From IMG/VR virus record IMGVR_UViG_2558860274_000002: 12,057 nucleotides of DNA. One strand, 5' to 3'. Source of the DNA: a virus (taxonomy: Duplodnaviria; Heunggongvirae; Uroviricota; Caudoviricetes). Below the pieces are notes generated by a model that had not been told where the DNA came from, did not search any database, and worked only from the letters and a program-made list of their open reading frames with translations. This document shows positions 1 to 12,057 of this stretch, in pieces (the first letter of the stretch is position 1; every line of letters begins with the position of its first letter). The position numbers and the translations under genes are program-made.

Positions 1-219
1 TTACATCCACATAATTTGCTGCCCTGACGGCAACGGGTGCGGCCTTACGGCGTGGACTTCTCCCGGCTTCACGATGTATCGCTGTACCGACTCATAAGTG
101 ATGAACGTGGCGCTGCAATTCACGTTCTGGCACTGGTGATAACGCTCTTTTGTCGTGTCAGTGATATAGCGGCTTGTACGCGCATGTGCGGCATGCTGGC
201 ATAAAGGACAATGAAACAT
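1..219 (-). CDS. ogr: Ogr, P2-type late-gene transcriptional activator (Cys4 zinc finger), 72 aa
   Basis: Minus-strand ORF; translation from the internal Met (MFHCPLCQHAAHARTSRYITDTTKERYHQCQNVNC...) gives 72 aa, the length and N-terminus I recall for P2 Ogr. Has the C-x2-C...C-x4-C zinc-binding pattern. RBS-like GGAAGAGG lies 8 nt upstream of this ATG. The 93-aa extension to nt 282 is probably not translated. Confidence 0.9.
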   Translation of the reverse strand: MFHCPLCQHAAHARTSRYITDTTKERYHQCQNVNCSATFITYESVQRYIVKPGEVHAVRPHPLPSGQQIMWM

Positions 220-300
220 CGCGAGCACCTCTTCCGGTTTTGTTGATGGTGCCATTTTAGTTAATTTATCCTTATAAAACAAACAGATAAATAAAAGATA
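220..300 (-). promoter_or_regulatory. Candidate ogr promoter in the D-ogr intergenic region
   Basis: 82-nt AT-rich spacer between D stop (301) and ogr start (219). On the minus strand there is a possible -35 TTGTTT (282..277), 17-nt spacer, and -10 TAAAAT (259..254). Hexamers picked by eye only. Confidence 0.3.
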
Positions 301-1464
301 TCACTCATCATCTTCTGTTTCGTACTCCACATCAGAAAGCCTTACCTCAAGTTCTAAGGACGTCGTGAAGCCGCTATTATTCAGAAAATGTGTCACCTTA
401 GTGATTGTCCAGTCCTGCTCGTCTATGACGCGCTTAAAGCCTGATACTTTGACCGGCGTTTCCGTGTAAATATCTGCCCGACCAGTAGCCAGACTGATGG
501 AGAACTCCGCAACGCCCCGTTGCAGCTTATCCCACTTCGCCTGAGCGGCGCGCATGGCCTGCGCTTTCGTGGCATATACCGTGGTCAGGGCAAAAACGTT
601 GTCAGCCTCACCTGCCATGTATTCACCTTCGCGCGCTTCCGGTACTTTTGGCGCTTTCTTCTGCGTGACTGGTTTCGCTTTCGGGTGTTCCAGTGCGCGC
701 AGGTGTTTCTCTTTCTTTTTGCGTTTCAGTTTTACCTTCTGCTTTTGCGGCTTCGGGTCTTTGGTGTGTAACCACTTTGCCGTTACGCCGGTGTAAGCTC
801 CACGGTCAGCAATCGCAAAATGATGACGGTCGCCGTCGCTGCGGGTGATGGTAATCTGCGGGATTTTTTTACCACTGGCCGTCACCCCCTGCCCCGCTTT
901 GAGAAACAACAGTTTTCCCATTTTTACAGAGACCTCACCGCCGTTGCGTTCTGCAAGACGGGTCAGGAATTTCGCATCAGACTCCTGCGACTGGTCGATG
1001 TGCGGGATTTTAATTCCGGCCAGTGACGGAGCGACACTGGCTTCCAGTCTGTTACGGGAGGCTATCGCCTCAACAATCGCACCGAGCGTGGTGTCATGCC
1101 AGGAGCCTTCACGGCGGGAATTGAGCGTCCCGCGGAAATCTGCACTCCGGGCGCGGATGGTAACCACATCCGGCGCGCCCCGGTGTTCAACCTCATCAAC
1201 GGTAAATTTCCCTTTGCATACCAGGGCAAAACCTTTCCAGCCGATATACACCGTCAGGACAGCGCCACGAACCGGCAGCCCGACCTGCCCGTCGGCATCG
1301 TTCAGTTCAATATCAAGCTGGTCAGCCTCAAAGCCCCGGTTATCCGTCAGGGTCATGCTCATCAGACGGTCGCTGATATTGCCGGTAATATCCCTGCTGT
1401 CGAGCATCAGCATGTAATCCGGTGTCAGCGTACTGCCTGCATCAAATGTCAGCGCATCCAGCAT
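301..1464 (-). CDS. D: Tail protein gpD (P2 late gene D family), 387 aa
   Basis: Minus-strand ORF; start at the internal Met (MLDALTFDAGSTLTPDYMLMLDSRDITG...) gives 387 aa, the length I recall for P2 gpD. Contains the lysine-rich stretch KDPKPQKQKVKLKRKKKEKH. G-rich RBS-like run directly upstream of the ATG at 1464. Immediately followed by ogr, as in P2. Confidence 0.9.
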   Translation of the reverse strand: MLDALTFDAGSTLTPDYMLMLDSRDITGNISDRLMSMTLTDNRGFEADQLDIELNDADGQVGLPVRGAVLTVYIGWKGFALVCKGKFTVDEVEHRGAPDVVTIRARSADFRGTLNSRREGSWHDTTLGAIVEAIASRNRLEASVAPSLAGIKIPHIDQSQESDAKFLTRLAERNGGEVSVKMGKLLFLKAGQGVTASGKKIPQITITRSDGDRHHFAIADRGAYTGVTAKWLHTKDPKPQKQKVKLKRKKKEKHLRALEHPKAKPVTQKKAPKVPEAREGEYMAGEADNVFALTTVYATKAQAMRAAQAKWDKLQRGVAEFSISLATGRADIYTETPVKVSGFKRVIDEQDWTITKVTHFLNNSGFTTSLELEVRLSDVEYETEDDE

Positions 1465-1489
1465 TATCCCGCCCCCGTCATACCCGTGA

Positions 1490-1759
1490 ATGAAAACCGC
1501 AATGGTGCTCAAGGCAAAAGACGTTATTCGCCGTGGCTGTCTGGAATATGACGTCAGCGCCACCGACATCACCAGCTCGTTTATGGCTATCCGCAAGACC
1601 ATGACCAGCAGCGGACGCAGCGCCACCTATGAGGCCAGCCGCAGCGAGGAAGCCAGCCACGCCGACCTCGCCTGGGCGACCATGCACGCCCTGTTAAATG
1701 AGCCACTCACCGCCGGTATCAGCACCCCGCTGACATCCACCATTCTGGAGTTTTACTGA
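1490..1759 (+). pseudogene. Probable 3' remnant of terminase ATPase gene P (truncated, 89 codons)
   Basis: ORF directly upstream of Q on the same strand, with its TGA stop (1757-1759) overlapping the Q ATG (1759-1761) in an ATGA arrangement, as expected for P-Q coupling. The frame is closed by a TGA at 1487-1489, so at most 89 codons remain versus roughly 590 expected for P. Identity as P is inferred from position only; I cannot recall the P C-terminal sequence. Confidence 0.4.
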
Positions 1760-2793
1760 TGAGCAAGAAAAAAGGGAAAACACCGCAACCTGCGGCAAAA
1801 AAAATGACCGCCAGCGCCCCGAAAATGGAGGCATTCACCTTTGGTGAGCCGGTGCCGGTGCTCGACCGCCGTGACATTCTGGATTACGTCGAATGTATCA
1901 GTAACGGCAGATGGTATGAGCCGCCGGTCAGCTTTACCGGTCTGGCAAAAAGCCTGCGTGCTGCCGTGCATCACAGCTCACCGATTTACGTCAAACGCAA
2001 TATTCTGGCTTCAACGTTTATTCCGCATCCGTGGCTTTCCCAGCAGGATTTCAGCCGCTTTGTGCTGGATTTTCTGGTGTTCGGCAATGCGTTTCTGGAA
2101 AAGCGTTACAGTACCACCGGTAAGGTCATCAGACTGGAAACCTCACCGGCAAAATATACCCGCCGTGGTGTGGAAGAGGATGTTTACTGGTGGGTGCCGT
2201 CCTTCAACGAGCCGACAGCCTTCGCGCCCGGCTCCGTGTTTCACCTGCTGGAGCCGGATATTAATCAGGAGCTGTACGGTCTGCCGGAATATCTCAGCGC
2301 CCTTAATTCTGCCTGGCTGAATGAGTCGGCCACGCTGTTCCGCCGCAAGTATTACGAAAATGGCGCACATGCCGGATACATCATGTACGTCACTGATGCC
2401 GTGCAGGATCGCAACGATATCGAAATGCTACGCGAAAACATGGTTAAGTCGAAAGGCCGCAATAACTTTAAAAATCTGTTTCTCTATGCCCCACAGGGGA
2501 AAGCCGACGGCATTAAAATTATCCCCCTCAGTGAAGTGGCGACGAAGGACGATTTTTTTAATATCAAAAAAGCCAGCGCCGCTGACCTGCTGGACGCGCA
2601 CCGCATCCCCTTTCAGTTGATGGGTGGCAAGCCGGAGAACGTCGGGTCGCTGGGTGATATAGAGAAAGTGGCAAAGGTCTTTGTCCGCAATGAGCTTATC
2701 CCGTTACAGGACAGGATCCGCGAGATAAACGGCTGGCTCGGTCAGGAGGTCATCCGCTTTAAAAACTACTCACTGGACACTGACAACGGCTGA
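1759..2793 (+). CDS. Q: Portal (capsid vertex) protein gpQ, 344 aa
   Basis: 344-aa ORF, the length I recall for P2 gpQ, transcribed toward the cos site as in P2. Start ATG overlaps the upstream ORF stop. Followed by a strong intrinsic terminator. Confidence 0.9.
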   Translation: MSKKKGKTPQPAAKKMTASAPKMEAFTFGEPVPVLDRRDILDYVECISNGRWYEPPVSFTGLAKSLRAAVHHSSPIYVKRNILASTFIPHPWLSQQDFSRFVLDFLVFGNAFLEKRYSTTGKVIRLETSPAKYTRRGVEEDVYWWVPSFNEPTAFAPGSVFHLLEPDINQELYGLPEYLSALNSAWLNESATLFRRKYYENGAHAGYIMYVTDAVQDRNDIEMLRENMVKSKGRNNFKNLFLYAPQGKADGIKIIPLSEVATKDDFFNIKKASAADLLDAHRIPFQLMGGKPENVGSLGDIEKVAKVFVRNELIPLQDRIREINGWLGQEVIRFKNYSLDTDNG

Positions 2794-2798
2794 ACATC

Positions 2799-2820
2799 GC
2801 CGCCTGTGGGCGGCTTTTTT
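2799..2820 (+). terminator. Rho-independent terminator downstream of Q
   Basis: GCCGCC (2799-2804), loop TGTG, GGCGGC (2809-2814), then a run of six T (2815-2820), starting 6 nt after the Q stop codon. Confidence 0.65.
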
Positions 2821-2962
2821 ACACCCCGCCATCACGCCCTCACACGCTCACCACCGCACAAAACAGCCCGCATACACACCAACGCCCCGGCGAACAATCT
2901 AAACGCCATCACAACGCGCTCAGACGCTGAAAAAATAAAATCAGCACCACCGCCAGCGCGCA

Positions 2963-2981
2963 GTGCTTTCCCCACCTCGCC
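2963..2981 (-). other. cos site: 19-nt P2/P4-type cohesive-end sequence (terminase cleavage site)
   Basis: Minus strand reads GGCGAGGTGGGGAAAGCAC, one mismatch from the P2/P4 cohesive end as I recall it (GGCGAGGCGGGGAAAGCAC). The flanking C/A-rich sequence 2821-2962 also resembles my recollection of the P2/P4 left-end sequence. Position between Q and the right-end genes is as expected. Confidence 0.7.
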
Positions 2982-3004
2982 CGCCCGCTTCGTGGGGCGG
3001 TTTT
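2981..3004 (+). terminator. Terminator-like GC hairpin abutting cos
   Basis: CCGCCC (2981-2986), 8-nt loop, GGGCGG (2995-3000), followed by TTTT (3001-3004). Function not established; may be part of the terminase recognition region instead. Confidence 0.3.
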
Positions 3005-3138
3005 AATGCAGGTGTAAATTCAGTCTAAATACATACCTGTCGGGTCATCAAGCTTGTGCGCTCACTCAATAAAACACATGCAAATAAATGCATATAGACA
3101 TGCGCTACCAACTTGCACTAGCCATGTACATCAGGTAA

Positions 3139-4971
3139 TTAACAACGTAATTCTGTACAATTAGCCCATTCTTCAGAAAAAACAGCATCTGAAGATTTTG
3201 GCCCTGGCCTTGCTTGATTAATTGAAATTCTTACAGGCAAATTAAATGCAGAACCAAATGCAACAGCATCACCTCTTGGTAAACCTGATATTTGTTTTAA
3301 GATTTGTTCATTACCGCTTTCCATTGCATATCTGAGAGCCTGTAAATCTCTTTCATTAGTCAAACGTAACGAAAACCAGTTTGAACACATTGCCAAAACA
3401 GTAGGAGAAAGCTCTGAGGGTCGCTGAGTACTGACAATTAAAGAGCATTTGAATTTCCTACCTTCTTTAGCAAGTCGTTCATATGCTTTAATCTGTGAGT
3501 CAATTTCAGCATAAGGGTCACGCAGGTAATGATGCGCTTCTTCCAACAAAAGTACCGTAGGATACGAACGTTCCTGCCCACGTCTAAATAGTATCTCAGC
3601 AAACATCTCCAACAATGCACTAAGTAACATTGGAGCATGATCTTGTGCCAAATTTTTCATATTAACTATATGAACATTCCAATCATTTTCTTGTCCTTTT
3701 TCCTTACCAAAGAAGTAATCAACTTCATCACTCATAGCTTTATCCCAATGCGTTCCACCATCTGCTAGCTCACCCCCTCCATTTAAATTAACAATAGATT
3801 TAAATCTTATATCCTCTGCAAGTTGTTGTATGATTTTTACCAATGGCAACACGTTACTAAAACCAAACGCGTCACGTTTACTTCCATTAGAACGGTCAGC
3901 AGCTACACATCCAAATTCAGCAACCAAAGTCGCTAAACTTTTAAACGGCGGCCATACATTCGTTCTTTTAAGACGTCTACGCCTTAATAAATCCAACCAC
4001 TCAGCCAATTTACTTTGATTTGTGTCACGACAATCATCATACAAAAGAAAAGTTTCACCATCATTTTTTTCCAAGTAAATATTACGGCTTTTAAAATGAG
4101 TCCGATTAATTGCACTTAATGCATTTCTTAATGCGGGCAATTGTGTTTTATCACTTGGTCTTAATAATTTAATTAACCCAGCAAAACCTAATGCCTGATA
4201 TGGTATCTTTTTATAACAATAATACTCTTCACTATATAGCTCACCCTTTTGCTGATTTTTTTCCAAACTATCAACATTTGGGGATTCCCCTAGAATAGTG
4301 TGCTTTACATTTGGAATACCTGTAAAAGCTTGCGCGTATTCACCATTTATGTCAAAAATAACTATTCTTGAGTTAGGGTATTTTTCAGAAACCTTCCTCG
4401 TTAACAAAGCATTGAAATTTGATTTACCATATCCTGTACTACCAAGAACGGCTAAGTGTCGCGACAATAATTTATCAACACTTGCAAATATCTTAACGGT
4501 TTTAGTTCGAGAATCCACACCTAATTCAACCGCTTTTGGGAGTTCTTCTTTATCAATACTATAAATGATGTTCAAAAAATCTGAAGTCAAAGGAACAGCA
4601 GAAGAACCCAATGCAGGTAAGCGCCAATCTTCTGATATAAAAACATAACCATTTAACTCCCTTTTCACAAAGCCAATTGCATAGGCGATAATTTGTCTTA
4701 GAGGTATATCAGCTAAATCAGATGTGCCTACATTTGCCTTATGCGCTTTATCCGCTTCAACAAATGCCATATCTGTCACTCTTGCGACAACTAATATATT
4801 ACCTGCATCGAACCCAATAAGATCTCCTGGTTGCGTTACTGAGCTCACCCCCTTTCTATGCGATGCTAATCTGCCTTGCAACCCCTCATGCAGGTTTATC
4901 CTAATTCTTTCCCCTTCTAATCCTACAACGTATCCAATAGCCGAGATTTCAGTAAGTTTAAAAAGGGACAT
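3139..4971 (-). CDS. herA: HerA-like (FtsK/HerA superfamily) ATPase, 610 aa; second gene of a SIR2-HerA-type defence operon
   Basis: Walker A LAVLGSTGYGKSN, Walker B TVLLLEEAHHYL, and the HerA/FtsK-typical LIVSTQRPSEL motif. Start taken at the internal Met (MSLFKLTEIS..., ATG at 4971) because AGGAGA lies 5 nt upstream and the ATG sits just inside the 3' end of the sir2-like gene. The ORF track's start at 5022 has no such support. AT-rich relative to phage core genes. Confidence 0.85.
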   Translation of the reverse strand: MSLFKLTEISAIGYVVGLEGERIRINLHEGLQGRLASHRKGVSSVTQPGDLIGFDAGNILVVARVTDMAFVEADKAHKANVGTSDLADIPLRQIIAYAIGFVKRELNGYVFISEDWRLPALGSSAVPLTSDFLNIIYSIDKEELPKAVELGVDSRTKTVKIFASVDKLLSRHLAVLGSTGYGKSNFNALLTRKVSEKYPNSRIVIFDINGEYAQAFTGIPNVKHTILGESPNVDSLEKNQQKGELYSEEYYCYKKIPYQALGFAGLIKLLRPSDKTQLPALRNALSAINRTHFKSRNIYLEKNDGETFLLYDDCRDTNQSKLAEWLDLLRRRRLKRTNVWPPFKSLATLVAEFGCVAADRSNGSKRDAFGFSNVLPLVKIIQQLAEDIRFKSIVNLNGGGELADGGTHWDKAMSDEVDYFFGKEKGQENDWNVHIVNMKNLAQDHAPMLLSALLEMFAEILFRRGQERSYPTVLLLEEAHHYLRDPYAEIDSQIKAYERLAKEGRKFKCSLIVSTQRPSELSPTVLAMCSNWFSLRLTNERDLQALRYAMESGNEQILKQISGLPRGDAVAFGSAFNLPVRISINQARPGPKSSDAVFSEEWANCTELRC

Positions 4972-6205
4972 TACCTTCTCCTTTAGAAAGATTAGCAATT
5001 GCTTCAACCAACTCATCAACAATATTATCTCGTGGAAAGAGCACAGGGTATGGTAGATGTTCTACGAAACTATTAAAATATGCCTTGCTTCCTCCCCCAA
5101 CTACAGTTACTTGATTGAAAGCCATATTTTTTAAAGTAACAATAGCTTTCTCAGCTTCCGAACCGCCACCCTTACTTACTTTGGCAATTGCTTCTTTCAA
5201 TTCAGGATAATATATAACAACATGGAAAGATGGATTCAGTAACGCGCCTAATATTATTCTATTTATATGATAATCACCGAAACCAAACCCATTTATGAAC
5301 AACGCTGTTTGAGGTTTCGAAATAAACTCCCCAAAACGTCTAAACATCTCTCCATAAACGAAGCCGATTGTATGGCTATATTTATTCGCCCCTGGATAAA
5401 TCAAATGTTGACCGCGATAAAAGTCATCTTTATTGATTATGTCATTAATATATTCATCATATGCTTGAGATGCACTAACTTCGTTAACAGTCAAGCTATC
5501 ATTTTGATACCACGTAAGTGAGCCATGTAATTTATAGAGATACGCATGATAATGTCCGAATCTTGCTTCGCCCTTCGCATTTACATTTCTGAAAGCCAAA
5601 TCAAAATTCTGGGGATAAAACTGCCGTGTATGTAGCCCAGAAAAACCATTAAACAACTGTATTCCTAAATCTTCTGCAGCCCACTCTAAGGCCAAATCAT
5701 AATTTGTTGTGAAAATTGCCGGAGCCGACTGACCGGGCTGTCTATTTGAAATTAATTTTGAAATTAACTCTTTGTGATATTTAAACGCATCTTTTTTACC
5801 CTGATTTTTCTCTCTAAACTGCTCTCCTGTTAATAATGCAGCCTTCGTAACCTCTTTATATAATGAACTTAATATCTTCCTGAATTCCTCCTCTTCATCT
5901 TCACATCGTCTAGTTTTAGCTACAGAAAGAAATTTAGTTGCTTCATCTATCAAAAGTTCAACATTGACCAAATTGTTATCAGAATCAATTTGCGAAACCA
6001 GAAGATATTTATCAATAAGTGCTCCCAAAAGCTCAGGGTAGTTTTGCTTAAACGATTTCCATACATCTTTCATCGTTTTCCCACCACAACCGACAGAAGC
6101 ACCAGCACCTAACAGAACGCCAACATTATCTAATTGACACAAGGAATAAACGTGAGAACGAAAATCATCCTCATTTAACTTGTTACCACCTTGATAAATC
6201 GACAT
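4958..6205 (-). CDS. sir2: SIR2-like domain protein (predicted NAD+-consuming effector), about 415 aa; first gene of the SIR2-HerA-type operon
   Basis: Rossmann-type glycine motif VLLGAGASVGCGG, then IFTTNYDLALEWA (Asn/Asp motif typical of prokaryotic defence SIR2 domains) and YLYKLHGSLTW (catalytic His-Gly). About 180 aa C-terminal extension. Start placed at the second ATG (6205) because AAGGA lies 5 nt upstream; the first ATG (6211) is an alternative. AT-rich. Confidence 0.85.
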   Translation of the reverse strand: MSIYQGGNKLNEDDFRSHVYSLCQLDNVGVLLGAGASVGCGGKTMKDVWKSFKQNYPELLGALIDKYLLVSQIDSDNNLVNVELLIDEATKFLSVAKTRRCEDEEEEFRKILSSLYKEVTKAALLTGEQFREKNQGKKDAFKYHKELISKLISNRQPGQSAPAIFTTNYDLALEWAAEDLGIQLFNGFSGLHTRQFYPQNFDLAFRNVNAKGEARFGHYHAYLYKLHGSLTWYQNDSLTVNEVSASQAYDEYINDIINKDDFYRGQHLIYPGANKYSHTIGFVYGEMFRRFGEFISKPQTALFINGFGFGDYHINRIILGALLNPSFHVVIYYPELKEAIAKVSKGGGSEAEKAIVTLKNMAFNQVTVVGGGSKAYFNSFVEHLPYPVLFPRDNIVDELVEAIANLSKGEGNVPF

Positions 6206-6211
6206 AAACAT

Positions 6212-6326
6212 CCTTTTACAAATTTTAAAATTAGCTAAGTTACTACATTAAAAATCAAATATTAGAAAAAGTCATTACTCATAATCACACAATAGATTCA
6301 TAGGGTTAGCATAGTCACAATAGCTA
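6212..6326 (-). promoter_or_regulatory. Probable promoter region of the SIR2-HerA operon
   Basis: 115-nt very AT-rich spacer between the A stop and the sir2 start. One candidate on the minus strand: -35 TTGATT (6258..6253), 17-nt spacer, -10 GCTAAT (6235..6230). Not validated. Confidence 0.3.
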
Positions 6327-8450
6327 TCATTGTTGATTATCAGCATCCTGTACATTGAAAATCGCGGTTGACTCGCCAACTATGCCTGCTCGTGTGTCTC
6401 CTTTGTTTGTACATTTACGTGATGCTTCTATTTTCAATGCCAGATTAAGCACTTTCAAGACCTCCGGGTCATTCCATTCGATAACACCGTCATCTACCAG
6501 ATTAAGCACTGCTGCGGCGTGCTCAGAAGGTGTGGGAGCCGGTAACGAAGTATCGCCACAGGTGAGCTTTCCACAGTTATTGACAGGACTCCGAGGCGCG
6601 GCGATGCCGCTTTTTAAAGTCAAAGGCTCAACGACCGGAACTTTCGACACAATGCGCCAGTCCGTCGTTCTGGTGATATGAATATGACGCGCGCCGAGAT
6701 GCGGCGCGTAAATGCCGACCACTCTCTCGACTTCTTCCTCGTACTCGTTAACTTCATCCGACGGACTACGGGCGACCCTGACAGTCTGACAATCGCGCGG
6801 GACATTTGCCCCACCCTGCGCGCTGATATACAACGCAAAATCACCACTGTCTGCGGCGGCGCGTGCAGCCTCGACGCGCTCGTCAAACTCATCAGCAATG
6901 CTGACGCCGCGAGGCAATTTGCGTAGTTCACGGTAAGCCCCCATTGTCGGCAGACCAACCGTTTTAAATTGTGGGATGCGCCACGTTGACGCCCATGCGG
7001 TAACAGCCGCAGCAGTGTCTTTCAGCGGTCTGCCGGTATCGTTATCGAGCTGACCATCCAGTGCATAGCCATCGATGTTTTTTGAGATGTATTTCGCGAT
7101 ATACCCCGCAGCACCGCCCTGGTTAAGGTGTTTTGCCTGAAAACGGTTTCGCGCGGCTCCTCTTTCGTCGCCATCCTCTTTGAGCGCATAGCGACGCATG
7201 ATTTCGATAATCTGGTTACGCTGGCGTGGATTACAAAAAAGCATCATATGCCAGTGCGGCGTTCCGTCGTGGTGTGGCTCGACGACACGCAAACCGTAGA
7301 CCTGTAAATCATTATCCTTGAATGCCGTGCGCATCAGGCTCCAGATATGGCAGAGATAACGCTGCGCATCCTTTGGATTAAATGCCTCATCGTTCCAGCC
7401 GTGATTTAGCTGGACGGTTTTACTTTCGCCTTTTCCGACCTGACGTGTCGGGTGATACTTTGACGGCGCGGTAAGCGTGATAAACATCCCCACATCACCC
7501 TCTGCGGCGGCGTAACGCTCAATACCGGCAATGGTGTTCATCAGCTCCATCCGGCGAATTTCAGGATTAGAAATACTGCCCATCACCTTACTGATAAGGT
7601 CGATGCGCTCGCCGGTTTCCCTGTTTTCAAGGTCACACGATTTAAGAAATTCCAGATTTGCCTGGCGGCGTGCACGCACATCACGAATGGCATGTTTACT
7701 GGCATAAGGAGAACGGTCTTTATTCACCTCCCCGACAGCAATCAGTAACGCCTCATGCCAGCGCATACGCTGGCCTTTGAGCTGATGAGTCCACCACTCA
7801 TCGTTAAACAGACGGGCAATGGCAGAATATGCCTGCCTCGTGGTCATCTGTCCTTTACGGTATTTTTTCCAGTAAAGCGGGGAAATATTGAAAGCACGTG
7901 CAGCGCCAGCAACATGACCATAGAGGTGAGCCTGCGCCTCATCCGTAAACAGCGATTCTTTTTCGCCATGTGCATCCACCCAGGCATCGCTGAGTTCCTC
8001 ATACATCATGAAAAGCTGCGATGAGATACGGGCGGCAAACTTTTTCAGCTCCTTGTCATTCATTCCCGGCAGGCGCGCATAGTGGTCACGCTCTGCCAGA
8101 AACAGCAACGACGCGTCGGTGTTCATTTCATGGCGCTGATTCACGCGCTCAATGCGCGGCCATAAACGACGCTGAAAAGTGGATGTGAGGAAATAAAACC
8201 CGTGCACCGGGCTTTTATTGCGCCGGATGTAGTCATAGCGTGAAGTAAACAGCGAGCGCAAAAAGTAAGGCAGGCGGTTAATCGTGGATAAAACACCTTG
8301 CACCTGACGCATCTCGTCACGTGTAAGAGGTCTTTCGCGCCCGACAGCCTCGCGTGGCGCGTTCCATGCATAAGCACCGGTAAACGCCTTACCGGTGCCT
8401 GCGGCAAATGCTGACGGAGGGACAAAACGCCCGGAGGCTTTAACGGCCAT
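6327..8450 (-). CDS. A: Replication initiation endonuclease gpA (rolling-circle HUH-type initiator), 707 aa
   Basis: Start at the internal Met (MAVKASGRFVPPSAFAAG..., ATG at 8450), which I recall as the P2 gpA N-terminus. HUH-type metal-binding motif PHWHMMLF and paired-tyrosine motif GYIAKYISK typical of rolling-circle initiators. My recollection is that P2 gpA is about 761 aa, so the C-terminus here may be shorter or divergent. Confidence 0.9.
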   Translation of the reverse strand: MAVKASGRFVPPSAFAAGTGKAFTGAYAWNAPREAVGRERPLTRDEMRQVQGVLSTINRLPYFLRSLFTSRYDYIRRNKSPVHGFYFLTSTFQRRLWPRIERVNQRHEMNTDASLLFLAERDHYARLPGMNDKELKKFAARISSQLFMMYEELSDAWVDAHGEKESLFTDEAQAHLYGHVAGAARAFNISPLYWKKYRKGQMTTRQAYSAIARLFNDEWWTHQLKGQRMRWHEALLIAVGEVNKDRSPYASKHAIRDVRARRQANLEFLKSCDLENRETGERIDLISKVMGSISNPEIRRMELMNTIAGIERYAAAEGDVGMFITLTAPSKYHPTRQVGKGESKTVQLNHGWNDEAFNPKDAQRYLCHIWSLMRTAFKDNDLQVYGLRVVEPHHDGTPHWHMMLFCNPRQRNQIIEIMRRYALKEDGDERGAARNRFQAKHLNQGGAAGYIAKYISKNIDGYALDGQLDNDTGRPLKDTAAAVTAWASTWRIPQFKTVGLPTMGAYRELRKLPRGVSIADEFDERVEAARAAADSGDFALYISAQGGANVPRDCQTVRVARSPSDEVNEYEEEVERVVGIYAPHLGARHIHITRTTDWRIVSKVPVVEPLTLKSGIAAPRSPVNNCGKLTCGDTSLPAPTPSEHAAAVLNLVDDGVIEWNDPEVLKVLNLALKIEASRKCTNKGDTRAGIVGESTAIFNVQDADNQQ

Positions 8451-8715
8451 ATGAGCCAAAAGCCTCAGAACAACGCTTGCTGAGTTGCTCAACCTGCGCG
8501 TTTAAATCAGCAAAAGACTTTGCGCTTCCGGTCAGAATATCGTGATGCATCAGGCCGGAAACGAGCTGGATTAATTTCGGGTAATAACCAACCACCGCCA
8601 GCCATTCCTGACCGGCGTTTTTACCGCTTTCCGCTCTCTTTTTCTCGTGGAGAATAAACTGAAAGCTGTCACTGGTAACGACATAACGTTCGCCAATTTC
8701 AATACGAATACTCAT
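8440..8715 (-). CDS. P2 orf83-like small protein (function unknown)
   Basis: 91-aa ORF in the orf80-83 position between B and A. Its stop overlaps the A start by 11 nt and its start overlaps the upstream gene's stop. Confidence 0.6.
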   Translation of the reverse strand: MSIRIEIGERYVVTSDSFQFILHEKKRAESGKNAGQEWLAVVGYYPKLIQLVSGLMHHDILTGSAKSFADLNAQVEQLSKRCSEAFGSYGR

Positions 8716-8936
8716 GCCGTTCTCCGGTAATGCTTGTTTTTTGCTTCAAAGACTGACTGGCAGGAAACACAACGCGTGGCTGACGGATAAGCTGCACGAC
8801 GGGCAGCAGGTATTGGCGCGTCACACTCTTCGCAAACCAGCGCAGAAACACCGCTATGTTTTACCCTTGCCGCGTTAATCTGGCGCTCCAGTAATTCAGC
8901 CTGTTGTTCCTGAATAAAATCTATGTTGTCCGGCAT
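8712..8936 (-). CDS. TraR/DksA-family C4 zinc-finger protein (P2 orf82-like)
   Basis: 74-aa ORF with CEEC-x17-CVSC, the C-x2-C-x17-C-x2-C spacing typical of TraR/DksA-family proteins. Start and stop codons overlap those of both neighbours. Confidence 0.7.
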   Translation of the reverse strand: MPDNIDFIQEQQAELLERQINAARVKHSGVSALVCEECDAPIPAARRAAYPSATRCVSCQSVFEAKNKHYRRTA

Positions 8937-9241
8937 TACCAGCTCCTTTTGTCGTTCAGCTTCTTAAATTCATCAGCGCAATAGCTGGCGATTTCTGTCG
9001 TTAATTTTGTCAGTTCATCCACGGATGAAATTTGCTTATGAAATACAGCGCGTTTAACAAGTAAATTGACCACATCAGACAGGAGGTTTAATTCATTCTG
9101 ATAAATCGCGATAACAGATTCAGTTATGTCGCGTTTTTCTTTATCAAGACAAAGTTGAATAAGAGACAAATCGCCATTTTTCATAACGGCGATTTTTAAG
9201 GCGTTATTCAGTAATACAACTGAATGAGAACAGGACATCAA
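8936..9241 (-). CDS. P2 orf81-like small protein (function unknown)
   Basis: 101-aa ORF, tightly coupled to both flanking ORFs in the early operon. No recognisable motif. Confidence 0.55.
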
Positions 9242-9462
9242 AGCACCTCCCCGCGAGACAATCCGATATTGTGAAATTTTTCCGACTCCTGACTGAGCAG
9301 CTCGACTATCTCCACGCGGGATAACTCCGCCTTTGTGATATGGCGAATCATGGCGTCAAGATGAGAAGAAAAGCGCGTCGCAGCGTCGGCCTGTGCTTCG
9401 GTTCTGGCCTGTTGCAGCAGTAATGCGTATTTACCGCACTGATTTTCAGAAACTGTATGCAT
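9238..9462 (-). CDS. P2 orf80-like small protein (function unknown)
   Basis: 74-aa ORF, first gene after B in the early operon. Its stop overlaps the start of the next ORF. Confidence 0.55.
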
Positions 9463-9525
9463 GACTTTCTCCAGGCAAAAAGAAGCCCCGCACGATTAAG
9501 TGCGTTAAAAACTCTGGTTAATTAC

Positions 9526-10026
9526 TTAATGCAGATATTGCTCTGGTTTTACCGACGTCAGAATTGTCGGTGCATACTCAAACAGGCTGAATAATTCACG
9601 TAATGCACGGAATAAAGCATCACGCCAGTAACATGACTCTTCATTAATTCGCCAGTATGGCTGGTTGAATTCTTTTTCAGTCAATCCGGCATGCATAAAT
9701 AAAGTACGACGCTGACTGACTGTTAAAAAACTAATATATGCATACTCACTTGCGCCAACCTGACGGCGTTTTGAGAATGCCCCACGCAATTCATCAATTG
9801 CACAAACCAGCCGTTCACGTTCGACGTCGTTCATTTCTTCAAAACGCATCGTTGCGTGACGCTGTTTTAACTGCGCATGAAAGCAAACCGTTAACCGTTC
9901 GCGCTCCATCATCTGATTATAATAATCACATGTATCCTGCCAGCGAGGGACGGCCAGATGCTTACCAATTATCCGGCGCATAGTTGCTGGCTGTTTTTCG
10001 ACGAGATTGAGCGTCATCACTGTCAT
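9526..10026 (-). CDS. B: Replication protein gpB (helicase-loader-type early protein), 166 aa
   Basis: 166-aa ORF, the length I recall for P2 gpB, in the expected position between orf78 and orf80. Confidence 0.85.
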   Translation of the reverse strand: MTVMTLNLVEKQPATMRRIIGKHLAVPRWQDTCDYYNQMMERERLTVCFHAQLKQRHATMRFEEMNDVERERLVCAIDELRGAFSKRRQVGASEYAYISFLTVSQRRTLFMHAGLTEKEFNQPYWRINEESCYWRDALFRALRELFSLFEYAPTILTSVKPEQYLH

Positions 10027-10259
10027 TTCCAGAACCTCCGGCTTTTCAGAAAGGTCAGAGCCTTTTTTAACGGACTCTGTTTTTTGGTGCGGATAATGAT
10101 TCCCTTGCGACCCTTCCCGTGGGTGATGGTGAAGTCAATCGCCCTGGGGCTTTCGTTACGCAATAACTGAGCAATACAACGAGGCTCGTTCATCCTTTCC
10201 ACCTTAAGCCGCACGGCCATGTCTTGATTTGCTGTAACTAATGCGATTTTTCCAGTCAT
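10023..10259 (-). CDS. P2 orf78-like small protein, 78 aa
   Basis: Starting at the internal Met (MTGKIALVTANQDMAVRLK...) gives exactly 78 aa. Stop overlaps the B start (ATGA-type). The longer 96-aa form in the ORF track would overlap cox even further. Confidence 0.6.
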   Translation of the reverse strand: MTGKIALVTANQDMAVRLKVERMNEPRCIAQLLRNESPRAIDFTITHGKGRKGIIIRTKKQSPLKKALTFLKSRRFWK

Positions 10260-10575
10260 GCCATTCTGTCGGAGCTTCATCAACCAGTTGGGCTGCGTAC
10301 TTGTCCCACTCACGGCGATTAATCCATAATTCAGCTTTCCCTCTTGGTTTTAATGGGTCTGTCATGTAGAAGGCTGGCAGCTTTCCTGCTTTAGCCATTT
10401 CAGCCACCGCGCGTGGTGTCTTACCGATGTAAAGAGCAAAACCTTCTTTCGACAGCAAATCAGATGGGCGCTCTGAAATCTGAATGCTTTTACGTTTGGC
10501 TTCATTTTCGAAACTTGCCTCATCGCTAGTTGGACAAGAAATTTCTACATTTGTCGTCACTTTGCTATCCTCCAT
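10204..10575 (-). CDS. cox: Cox-like excisionase / early transcriptional repressor (winged-HTH)
   Basis: First gene of the leftward early operon, divergent from C. The segment GFALYIGKTPRAVAEMAKAGKLPAFYMTDP resembles the Cox DNA-binding region as I recall it. Start uncertain: the ATG at 10575 has no RBS, whereas an in-frame GTG at 10560 is preceded by GGAGGA with a 7-nt spacer (118 aa). The ORF is longer than P2 Cox (91 aa) and overlaps the orf78 start. Confidence 0.65.
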   Translation of the reverse strand: MEDSKVTTNVEISCPTSDEASFENEAKRKSIQISERPSDLLSKEGFALYIGKTPRAVAEMAKAGKLPAFYMTDPLKPRGKAELWINRREWDKYAAQLVDEAPTEWHDWKNRISYSKSRHGRAA

Positions 10576-10668
10576 AAGATTTGCGATTCACCAACTGGAG
10601 CCATCTAGAGCCTTTTTGAGTGAATCACAAATTGCCAAGTAGCAATATAATTGGAGATTAGCAAAATT
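10576..10668. promoter_or_regulatory. Immunity switch region (divergent Pe/Pc-type promoters and operators) between cox and C
   Basis: 93-nt spacer between the divergent cox and C starts. Contains a 7-bp inverted repeat GATTCAC (10585-10591) / GTGAATC (10620-10626) and a TATAAT hexamer (10646-10651) on the plus strand. Operator assignment not made. Confidence 0.5.
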
Positions 10669-10968
10669 ATGTCAAGTGAACAAAGTGAGAAACTAAAGCT
10701 CATCCGTGAATCCGAACGCCTTAAAACTAAGGAACTTGCTGAATTAATTGGAATTAATTACTACACATATCATGGATATGAATCAGGAAAATCAAAAATG
10801 CCTATGGAAGCAGGTATGAAGCTGTTTAAGCATCCACGCTTTCGCAAGTATCGTGACTGGTTCATGTTTGATGAAACAGATCCAGCAGCTGGACAAATAG
10901 CCCCGGCTCTCGCACACATTGGGCAAGACTCAACAACCTTGCACCACTCAGACCAGAAGACTGGCTGA
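10669..10968 (+). CDS. C: Immunity repressor C (P2 C family), 99 aa
   Basis: From the ATG at 10669 the ORF is 99 aa, the P2 C length. C-terminal DPAAGQIAPALAHIGQD...SDQKTG closely resembles the P2 C C-terminus as I recall it. The ORF track's start at 10651 is a TTG and less likely. Confidence 0.85.
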   Translation: MSSEQSEKLKLIRESERLKTKELAELIGINYYTYHGYESGKSKMPMEAGMKLFKHPRFRKYRDWFMFDETDPAAGQIAPALAHIGQDSTTLHHSDQKTG

Positions 10969-11061
10969 CGATTTATTCAGCATATGTGTGTAGTAAATGT
11001 ACGAAAGAAAATTGCATTAATTTTCAAGTAGTAGAAGTAAACAGCGTCATCGGAGGGCTTT

Positions 11062-12057
11062 ATGTCTATTAAAAAGCTCGATGATGGTCGTTATGAAGTG
11101 GACGTCAGACCGCAGGGTGCAGATGGAAAACGTATCAGGCGGAAATTTAAAACTAAAGGTGAAGCTCAGGCATTCGAACGTCATGTACTGGTTAACTACC
11201 ACAACAAAGAGTGGTTGGAGAAACCAGCCGACCGCCGAACTCTTACAGAGTTGTTAGGTAGATGGTGGATATATCACGGAAAATCACATGAGCGTGGAGA
11301 TATTGAACGGGGGCGTTTAACGACAATAATCGCCAAATTTGCAGAAATGGGAGTGTCCAGAGCTGACCAGCTAACAAAGAAAACGATAACTGATTATCGC
11401 GTTGTAATGATGAACGATGGTCTAAAACCAGCCAGCGTAAATCGACATCTGGCAATAATGAGCGGGATGTTCACCAAGTTAATTGACGCCGGTGAATACC
11501 ACTCCCACAACCCGTTCCGTGAGATTAAACGGTTACGTGAAGCTGTTACGGAAATGGCTTTTTTGTCCAGTGAAGAGATTACGCGGCTGTTATCCATGCT
11601 TGATGGTGATGAATTAAATGCAACTCTGGTCTGCCTTTCTACTGGTGGACGCTGGAGTGAAGTGTCTAATTTAAAAGCTGAACACATCATTAACCAGATG
11701 GTTACGTTTATGAAAACTAAAAACGGAAAACGCAGGACAATTCCCGTTTCGCAGGACCTGATTAAACGGATCAAGACCAAAAATTCAGGCAGGCTTTTTA
11801 ATGCCAGTTACTACAAAGTGCGTAACGCTCTCAGGGAAGTAAAACCCGATTTACCTGACGGACAAGCAGTACATGTTTTGAGGCATACATTTGCCACACA
11901 TTTTATAATGAATGGAGGTAACATAATCACATTGCAGCGCATCCTGGGTCATTCTAACATTCAGCAAACTATGACCTACGCACACTTTGCACCGGATTTC
12001 TTACAAGATGCTGTGACTCTTAACCCGGTGTCAGGAATGTCCATAATGCGTCCATAA
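11062..12057 (+). CDS. int: Tyrosine integrase (P2 Int family), 331 aa
   Basis: N-terminus MSIKKLDDGRYEVDVRPQGADGKRIRRKF resembles P2 Int. Tyrosine-recombinase motifs HVLRHTFATHF and the catalytic Tyr context QTMTYAHF are present. GGAGGG RBS 4 nt upstream. Downstream of C on the same strand, as in P2. The stop codon is the last 3 nt of the window. Confidence 0.9.
   Translation: MSIKKLDDGRYEVDVRPQGADGKRIRRKFKTKGEAQAFERHVLVNYHNKEWLEKPADRRTLTELLGRWWIYHGKSHERGDIERGRLTTIIAKFAEMGVSRADQLTKKTITDYRVVMMNDGLKPASVNRHLAIMSGMFTKLIDAGEYHSHNPFREIKRLREAVTEMAFLSSEEITRLLSMLDGDELNATLVCLSTGGRWSEVSNLKAEHIINQMVTFMKTKNGKRRTIPVSQDLIKRIKTKNSGRLFNASYYKVRNALREVKPDLPDGQAVHVLRHTFATHFIMNGGNIITLQRILGHSNIQQTMTYAHFAPDFLQDAVTLNPVSGMSIMRP

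Follow-up and report, generated by a model that had tools for sequence, protein, structure and literature searches.

Scar of an internal deletion in a P2-like prophage beside a recurrent breakpoint in the terminase gene P

With little doubt, the region studied here is the scar left when a P2-like (Peduovirus) prophage underwent one internal deletion, in which the end of gene U was joined to the end of gene P at a three-nucleotide AAT microhomology, without long homology between the ends. The window, i.e. the whole 12,057 nt stretch of DNA that was analysed (IMG/VR record IMGVR_UViG_2558860274_000002), corresponds in layout to a P2-like prophage in reverse orientation, with ogr, D, a remnant of U, the junction, a remnant of P (P′), Q, cos, HerA/SIR2, A, B, cox, C and int in that order. 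Its ends are the ogr stop (position 1) and the int stop (position 12057). The features that bear on the junction and its surroundings are as follows.

1–219, minus strand: ogr, late-gene activator, 72 aa, intact; translation identical to P2 Ogr
301–1464, minus strand: tail gene D, 387 aa, intact, without its promoter pF; 98.5% DNA identity to Wphi D
1465–1491, minus strand: 3′ remnant of U, the last 8 codons (FTGMTGAG) and stop; aligns with Wphi 20948–20975 and P2 22764–22791
1489–1491, no strand: deletion junction, 3-nt microhomology AAT; last base of the U/D block at 1491, first base of the P/Q block at 1489
1490–1759, plus strand: P′, codons 502–590 and stop of the large terminase gene P; 100% identity to P2 gpP, PF17289 only
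1759–2793, plus strand: portal gene Q, 344 aa, intact, without its promoter pP; about 97% DNA identity to Q genes of P2-like phages
2799–2814, plus strand: terminator tQ of the P-Q operon, a terminator-like hairpin followed by a T run at the position of the tQ annotated in P2
2963–2981, no strand: cos, the 19-nt cohesive-end sequence; one mismatch to P2
3139–6211, minus strand: SIR2-HerA cargo, two overlapping genes of 627 aa and 417 aa, identified by PADLOC
6327–8492, minus strand: gene A; P2 gpA residues 1–675 matched at 98%

Within this layout, 72 of the 73 bases of the ogr promoter region annotated in P2 are kept at 219–291. The exact D protein is present in 7144 blocks of the assembly collection, and a longer 441-residue open reading frame at D is a mere upstream extension over the junction. 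The stop of the U remnant overlaps the D start, and Q has the same length as its counterparts in P2 and Wphi. The window cos reads GTGCTTTCCCCACCTCGCC against GTGCTTTCCCCGCCTCGCC for the reverse complement of P2 cosL; the single-base difference between them (2963–2981) is GGCGAGGTGGGGAAAGCAC versus GGCGAGGCGGGGAAAGCAC. An exact 32-mer across the gpA origin nick site lies at 6576–6607, within 61 nt identical to P2.

The gene order is that of P2 (AF063097), Wphi (NC_005056) and the genus Peduovirus, with 96–100% identity for ogr, D, the U end, the P end, Q, cos, ori and the early genes; DNA identity is 96–98.5% on the junction flanks and 97% over the early region, and both the 19-nt cos and the gpA nick site are in the window. 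In contrast to P2 and Wphi, the window lacks the morphogenesis and lysis block (P codons 1–501 through U codon 151), has another int type, carries SIR2-HerA in place of old/tin and has a replaced gpA C-terminus. The SIR2-HerA anti-phage system is complete (PADLOC, E = 2.8e-277 for HerA and 5e-190 for SIR2); it lies between cos and gene A, where P2 carries old and tin, and the same cargo is found in many P2-like prophages, intact and defective. The C-terminal 86 residues of gpA are replaced by 32 unrelated ones (window 6327–6460 especially). The same gene A variant occurs in strain FG92-1, where it is annotated ‘incomplete, missing C-terminus’, and in other SIR2-HerA carriers A has 770 aa.

The deletion itself is defined by a megablast search of 50,697 phage records, in which the sequence around the junction matched as two blocks and never in one place in any phage. 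Window 3–1491 matches ogr, D and the U end (Wphi 22436–20948, 98.5%), and window 1489–3014 matches the P 3′ end, Q and cos (96–97%). The AAT that both blocks contain sits inside a stretch where six of nine positions are alike (CCCGTGAAT for U, GCCGGAAAT for P). Compared with Wphi the window lacks 19,458 bp (1490–20947), and compared with P2 it lacks 21,275 bp (1489–22763). Lost with them are P codons 1–501, O, N, M, L, X, the lysis genes, R, S, V, W, J, I, H, G, the variable G-FI region, FI, FII, E/E′, T and U except for its last 8 codons. Since Wphi 1490–20947, the complete morphogenesis and lysis module, is absent, the element is a defective remnant.

The sequence-only reading had placed the excision of the morphogenetic module at this point, and the two collinear blocks that meet at 1489–1491, with P through U missing between them, confirm it. 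It had also described the left flank as the upstream region of D. The start of D is indeed on the other strand and 1465–1491 does map to the U/D junction of P2-like phages; the segment is not intergenic, however, as it consists of the last 8 U codons and their stop. The joint would fit RecA-independent joining, by microhomology-mediated end joining or template switching, and the P-side break may derive from a hotspot 11 nt upstream, with 8–11 nt trimmed before joining. As an object the scar is of a known and ordinary kind; the junction itself is new.

P′ is a leftover and not a working terminase. Its frame opens at ATG 1490–1492, is closed upstream by an in-frame TGA at 1487–1489, and runs for 89 sense codons to a final TGA at 1757–1759, which has one base (1759) in common with the ATG of the 344-codon Q frame at 1759–2793. 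These coordinates, including the stop/start overlap with Q and the closure at 1487, agree exactly with what had been read from the sequence, as does the assignment to a truncated terminase, the alignment to the P2 large terminase giving a C-terminal match only. The 89 residues are identical to residues 502–590 of the 590-residue P2 gpP (E = 3e-60) and the only Pfam family recorded for the product is PF17289, Terminase_6C. The frame is not a chance one. The ATG at 1490 already exists in native P as the codon for Met502 and is not a start made by the junction, and the closing TGA derives from U antisense. P′ has neither the ATPase nor most of the nuclease domain: the families PF06056/PF03237, which mark the N-terminal DNA-binding and ATPase parts, are carried by intact or longer P fragments, and a full nuclease domain is lacking in P′.

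The proposal that Q and D have lost their native late promoters is borne out by the P2 map. In the P2 record the P operon starts at 3016, with a shared pO/pP activator site at 3057–3087, and the F operon starts at 17626, with an activator site at 17555–17583. Both pP and pF thus fall inside the deleted interval (P2 1489–22763), which leaves Q and D without Ogr-dependent promoters. D and P′-Q now stand divergent, head to head and 25 nt apart. No credible promoter was found between them; window 1–3150 contains a single sigma-70-like match against 2.3 expected, and this match overlaps the D start codon. From the sequence we reasonably infer that Q and D would be silent or expressed by read-through only. 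Read-through into D would need minus-strand early or cargo transcripts that cross Q antisense, and read-through into Q would need transcripts from host DNA that cross ogr and D antisense.

The exact junction was found nowhere else. There was no contiguous match to a 401-nt junction query in 5,426 complete E. coli genomes, and the junction-spanning 27-mer is absent from the GTDB species representatives and from IMG/VR. Hence this looks like a private and recent deletion in a prophage that is decaying in the ordinary way. Strain A17 (H56) has an intact prophage with this cargo and int, which matches window 1489–12057 at 98.6%. Complete E. coli genomes carry the arrangement ogr-D-U(′)/P′-Q-cargo-A...int with other breakpoints, and ogrK is annotated in all the remnants that were fetched. 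Two genomes, O157:H16 98-3133 (pflB/pflA) and K_EC180 (fieF/cpxP), cover the junction query in two pieces. Both hold ogr-D-U(′)/P′-Q remnants whose U-side ends differ (Wphi 20489 and 20593) and whose common P-side end lies 11 nt upstream of that in the window. Remnants of like layout, about 11.4–12.9 kb long, sit at three different att sites.

Other fusions and truncations were seen in the same surveys. In protein P0171 (137 aa) D residues 1–78 are followed, in the same frame, by the C-terminal part of gpP starting near residue 537. In strain W13-16 (hit H200) a P′ fragment starting at Wphi 1399 lies directly beside ogrK. A Q truncation near Wphi 1048 recurs in the sampled census rows (H137–H139, H318, H319) and is likely to be one event that spread clonally.

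Defective P2-type prophages that keep ogr and D sequence beside attR have a precedent in E. coli K-12, where Barreiro and Haggard-Ljungquist reportedly described in 1992 a cryptic P2 remnant, ogrK with a truncated D, next to yegQ. The K-12 remnant reportedly spans a few hundred bases and is without cos, Q and the early region, whereas some 12 kb remain of the window element, with int, immunity, replication, cos and a defence system among them. That content invites comparison with the satellite P4, which likewise has a genome of about 12 kb, cos, an integrase, replication functions of its own and an activator of the Ogr/Delta family. The element could on this basis be a helper-dependent ‘mini-P2’ that excises, replicates, switches on the late genes of a helper and is packaged together with SIR2-HerA. 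Consistent with such a life cycle, cos, the ori nick site, most of A, B, cox, C, int and ogr with its promoter region are all kept, the size is that of P4, the cargo is a complete SIR2-HerA pair, and remnants of similar layout (~11.4–12.9 kb) are present at three att sites. We nevertheless consider a satellite unlikely. The deletion simply did not reach the retained genes, gpA has a replaced C-terminus (86 aa), and genes for capsid size or helper derepression, such as analogues of sid, psu or epsilon, were not seen. Unlike P4, the element arose by deletion from the helper phage itself. The same junction did not occur at several loci or in several hosts; its absence from the 5426 complete E. 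coli genomes, the GTDB representatives and IMG/VR gives no sign of spread and no evidence of mobility.

Near the P side of the deletion lies an unexpected pattern, which the sequence-only reading had not noted. At least 16 other remnants, from E. coli, Yersinia and one divergent lineage, have independent junctions in which the P side starts at one and the same TA (loci L002, L003, L006–L012, L015, L016, L148, L149–152, L169, L183 and L187). This TA belongs to codon Tyr498, at Wphi 1502/1503 (P2 1501/1502), 11 nt upstream of window 1490. Its partners on Wphi are 2091, 2537 (L183), 2653 (inverted), 5592, 8947 (L006, in S), 10444, 11884 (L187), about 13310, 16214, 16660 (L169), 16940, 20489 and 20593, with three more that are unplaceable on Wphi. 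At L148, from a lineage 74% identical in protein, the D 3′ end is fused to P′; L149–152 come from a Yersinia lineage that is 72% identical. Two P alleles, TACACG and TACACA, and three int/att types are represented among the hotspot junctions. The P-side end therefore cannot have been inherited from one ancestral event, since no later deletion could meet an old junction to the nucleotide. A literature search found no paper on this breakpoint.

Gene calls in 794 blocks of the assembly collection include the exact 89-aa frame. In eight of the ten places listed for it, P homology begins at Wphi 1503/1502 and reads TACAC(G/A)CCGGAA ATG from the joint onwards. The partners of these eight are all different: J 10444, H/G ~13310, FI/FII 16940, M 5592, FI 16214, P 2091, an inverted P piece ending at 2653, and unplaced DNA. 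A look-up by this frame is biased towards ends within a zone of roughly 48 nt that runs from the first in-frame GTG upstream to the ATG; inside that zone the ends sit on a single dinucleotide. Scans of IMG/VR for junction patterns gave 3 (+1) at the hotspot against 0, 0 and 0 at three other P positions that start with TA. By record count in the complete E. coli genomes the hotspot does not dominate, with 24 partial records versus 45 and 97 in neighbouring windows of 400 nt each, the 97 appearing to be largely one recurrent Q truncation near Wphi 1048. A census by protein length was dropped, being confounded by fragments at contig ends.

Two further observations concern gene P. In the complete E. 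coli genomes, records at least 99% identical to Wphi number 573 for 1304–1703, the 400-nt window that holds the hotspot, against 11 and 32 for the flanking windows; synonymous-site analysis of the IMG/VR loci showed no matching excess of conservation at Wphi 1304–1703. In the 5′ part of P three rearrangements end within 26 nt, at Wphi 2628, 2637/2653 and 2652 (L004, L010, L013), and Wphi 2653 is a motif site, CGGTTAGC. Wphi 2628–2653 may be a second recurrent site.

The repeated survival of the same 89 residues might suggest that P′ is itself selected as a small protein, either because this C-terminal terminase fragment binds the portal and so disturbs packaging by incoming P2-like phages, or because translationally coupled expression of Q requires it. 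Besides the 794 blocks, one could cite for this the retention of the same segment in remnants of divergent lineages and the preserved stop/start overlap with Q. We think it even less probable than a satellite. The junctions pile up on one dinucleotide instead of spreading over the permitted zone, which points to mechanism and not to selection, and other remnants cut deeper into P′ or Q (Wphi 1399, 1048 and 754). There is no promoter, the sole Shine-Dalgarno-like bases are GGA 2–3 nt from the ATG, and synonymous-site diversity is ordinary. That the junction is an assembly or chimera artefact joining two parts of an intact prophage is highly improbable: the exact 27-mer is absent from every collection searched, but a 3-nt overlap is not used by assemblers to join contigs, the same kind of U/P′ fusion occurs in closed genomes and, outside the junction, the window runs collinear with real prophages.

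At the hotspot joints, zero to three bases are common to both sides (TA, TAC, A or AC), and one event (L010) is an inversion with fold-back. The partner sites are non-random. For 11 sites with reference sequence, aligned on the common TA, the enriched positions (a slash marks the joint or nick here and below) were:

position −6: C in 8 of 11, p = 0.0016
position −5: G in 7 of 11, p = 0.007
position −4: G in 10 of 11, p = 5.5e-5
position +2: C in 10 of 11, p = 8e-5

The consensus, CGGKTA/NCSG, is roughly two-fold symmetric about T/A, and a partner site of the motif type is written CGGGTAGC. Wphi contains 15 CGGKTANC octamers, five of them used as partners. The opposite strand of the hotspot, CGTGTA/GCGG, fits nine of the ten consensus positions; the fit of the direct strand, CCGCTA/CACG, is poorer. 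Ordinary microhomology of 0–10 nt, without the motif, is seen at junctions located off the hotspot (L004, L005, L013). The window joint is intermediate, with 3 nt of perfect homology, no motif and a position 10–11 nt inside the hotspot. Since its partner, GTGAAT/TTAG, is without CGGKTA and its P-side end is off the hotspot nucleotide, what ties it to the hotspot is proximity. Whether the P-side break of the window belongs to the recurrent fragile or cleavage site 11 nt upstream, with 8–11 nt trimmed before joining, is in our judgement evenly balanced.

Most of the candidate causes that we considered for the hotspot were rejected. Mis-termination by gpA at a pseudo-origin does not fit, the ori nick site (GCGCCTCG/GAGTCC) being unlike both the hotspot and the partner consensus. 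Int acting at secondary att sites was set aside as att cores differ among int types that all bear hotspot junctions; the two derivable cores, P2-type CCCTTACACGGG and Wphi-type CCCCCACATCATGTGGGGG, are unrelated, and the pfl-type int of the window itself yielded no core repeat. CGTGTA, complementary to the hotspot hexamer, does occur in the P2 core, which is insufficient for a reading based on Int. A hairpin or palindrome at the hotspot is not supported (fold z = −1.0 and −0.2 for the two strands, not significant). Neither is a mosaic or homologous-recombination boundary, divergent lineages being equally diverged on either side, nor a hidden cis element, third-codon-position diversity and identity being ordinary around the site. 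For self-targeting by type I-F CRISPR, no spacer to the CC-flanked 32-mer was found in the 5426 complete E. coli genomes, the apparent matches being repeats. There is no canonical type I-E PAM to the left of the junction, as read from the sequence. The 4-bp stagger of gyrase would not fit joints that share exactly TA. An IS-anchored deletion was rejected too, with no IS at any junction and a hotspot common to several genera. A pseudo-cos motif for terminase, in the relaxed form GCGNGYR/G, is not specific, with 24 occurrences in Wphi versus 22 expected. The cos nick contexts CGCGCA/GTGC and CGGGCG/GGCG resemble the partner consensus at the transition level only, and terminase nicking at cos-like half-sites is a weak lead.

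Judging by the nick strand annotated in the P2 record, P2 replication would leave ori in one direction and pass cos before it enters Q and P. That the cos-proximal side is the one retained appears compatible with this direction and would suit template switching after a nick or a stall. For M13 and pC194, Michel and Ehrlich are said to have described in 1986 deletions anchored at the nick site of a replication origin. They resemble the hotspot class in that one end is fixed to the nucleotide, the other varies among sequences with a short motif, and the joint has little or no homology. They differ in where the fixed end lies: the P2 ori nick site (29892, GCGCCTCG/GAGTCC) is elsewhere, inside gene A.

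It is possible, though doubtful, that the P-side end reflects a conserved and previously undescribed hotspot of site-specific breakage and rejoining, cut by an enzyme at the Tyr498 TA of the P2-like terminase gene. In such a scheme a sequence-specific, probably dimeric enzyme would cut the hotspot and partners resembling CGGKTA/NCSG and rejoin them through the common TA; the phage terminase nuclease, acting on half-sites like the cos nicks, or another recombinase or nuclease would be candidates.

The scar itself records the conversion of one P2-like prophage into a harmless carrier of a SIR2-HerA defence system. A single step took every lethal and structural gene, and immunity, integration, replication, cos and the cargo stayed. 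Its own interest is low to moderate, and the adjoining recurrent breakpoint with its partner motif is the part worth following. If that site is what we tentatively propose, whole prophages would repeatedly be reduced to remnants without lysis genes in which cos, ori, int and the defence cargo are retained, and prophage domestication in this family would be partly channelled by a specific DNA transaction as opposed to random decay.
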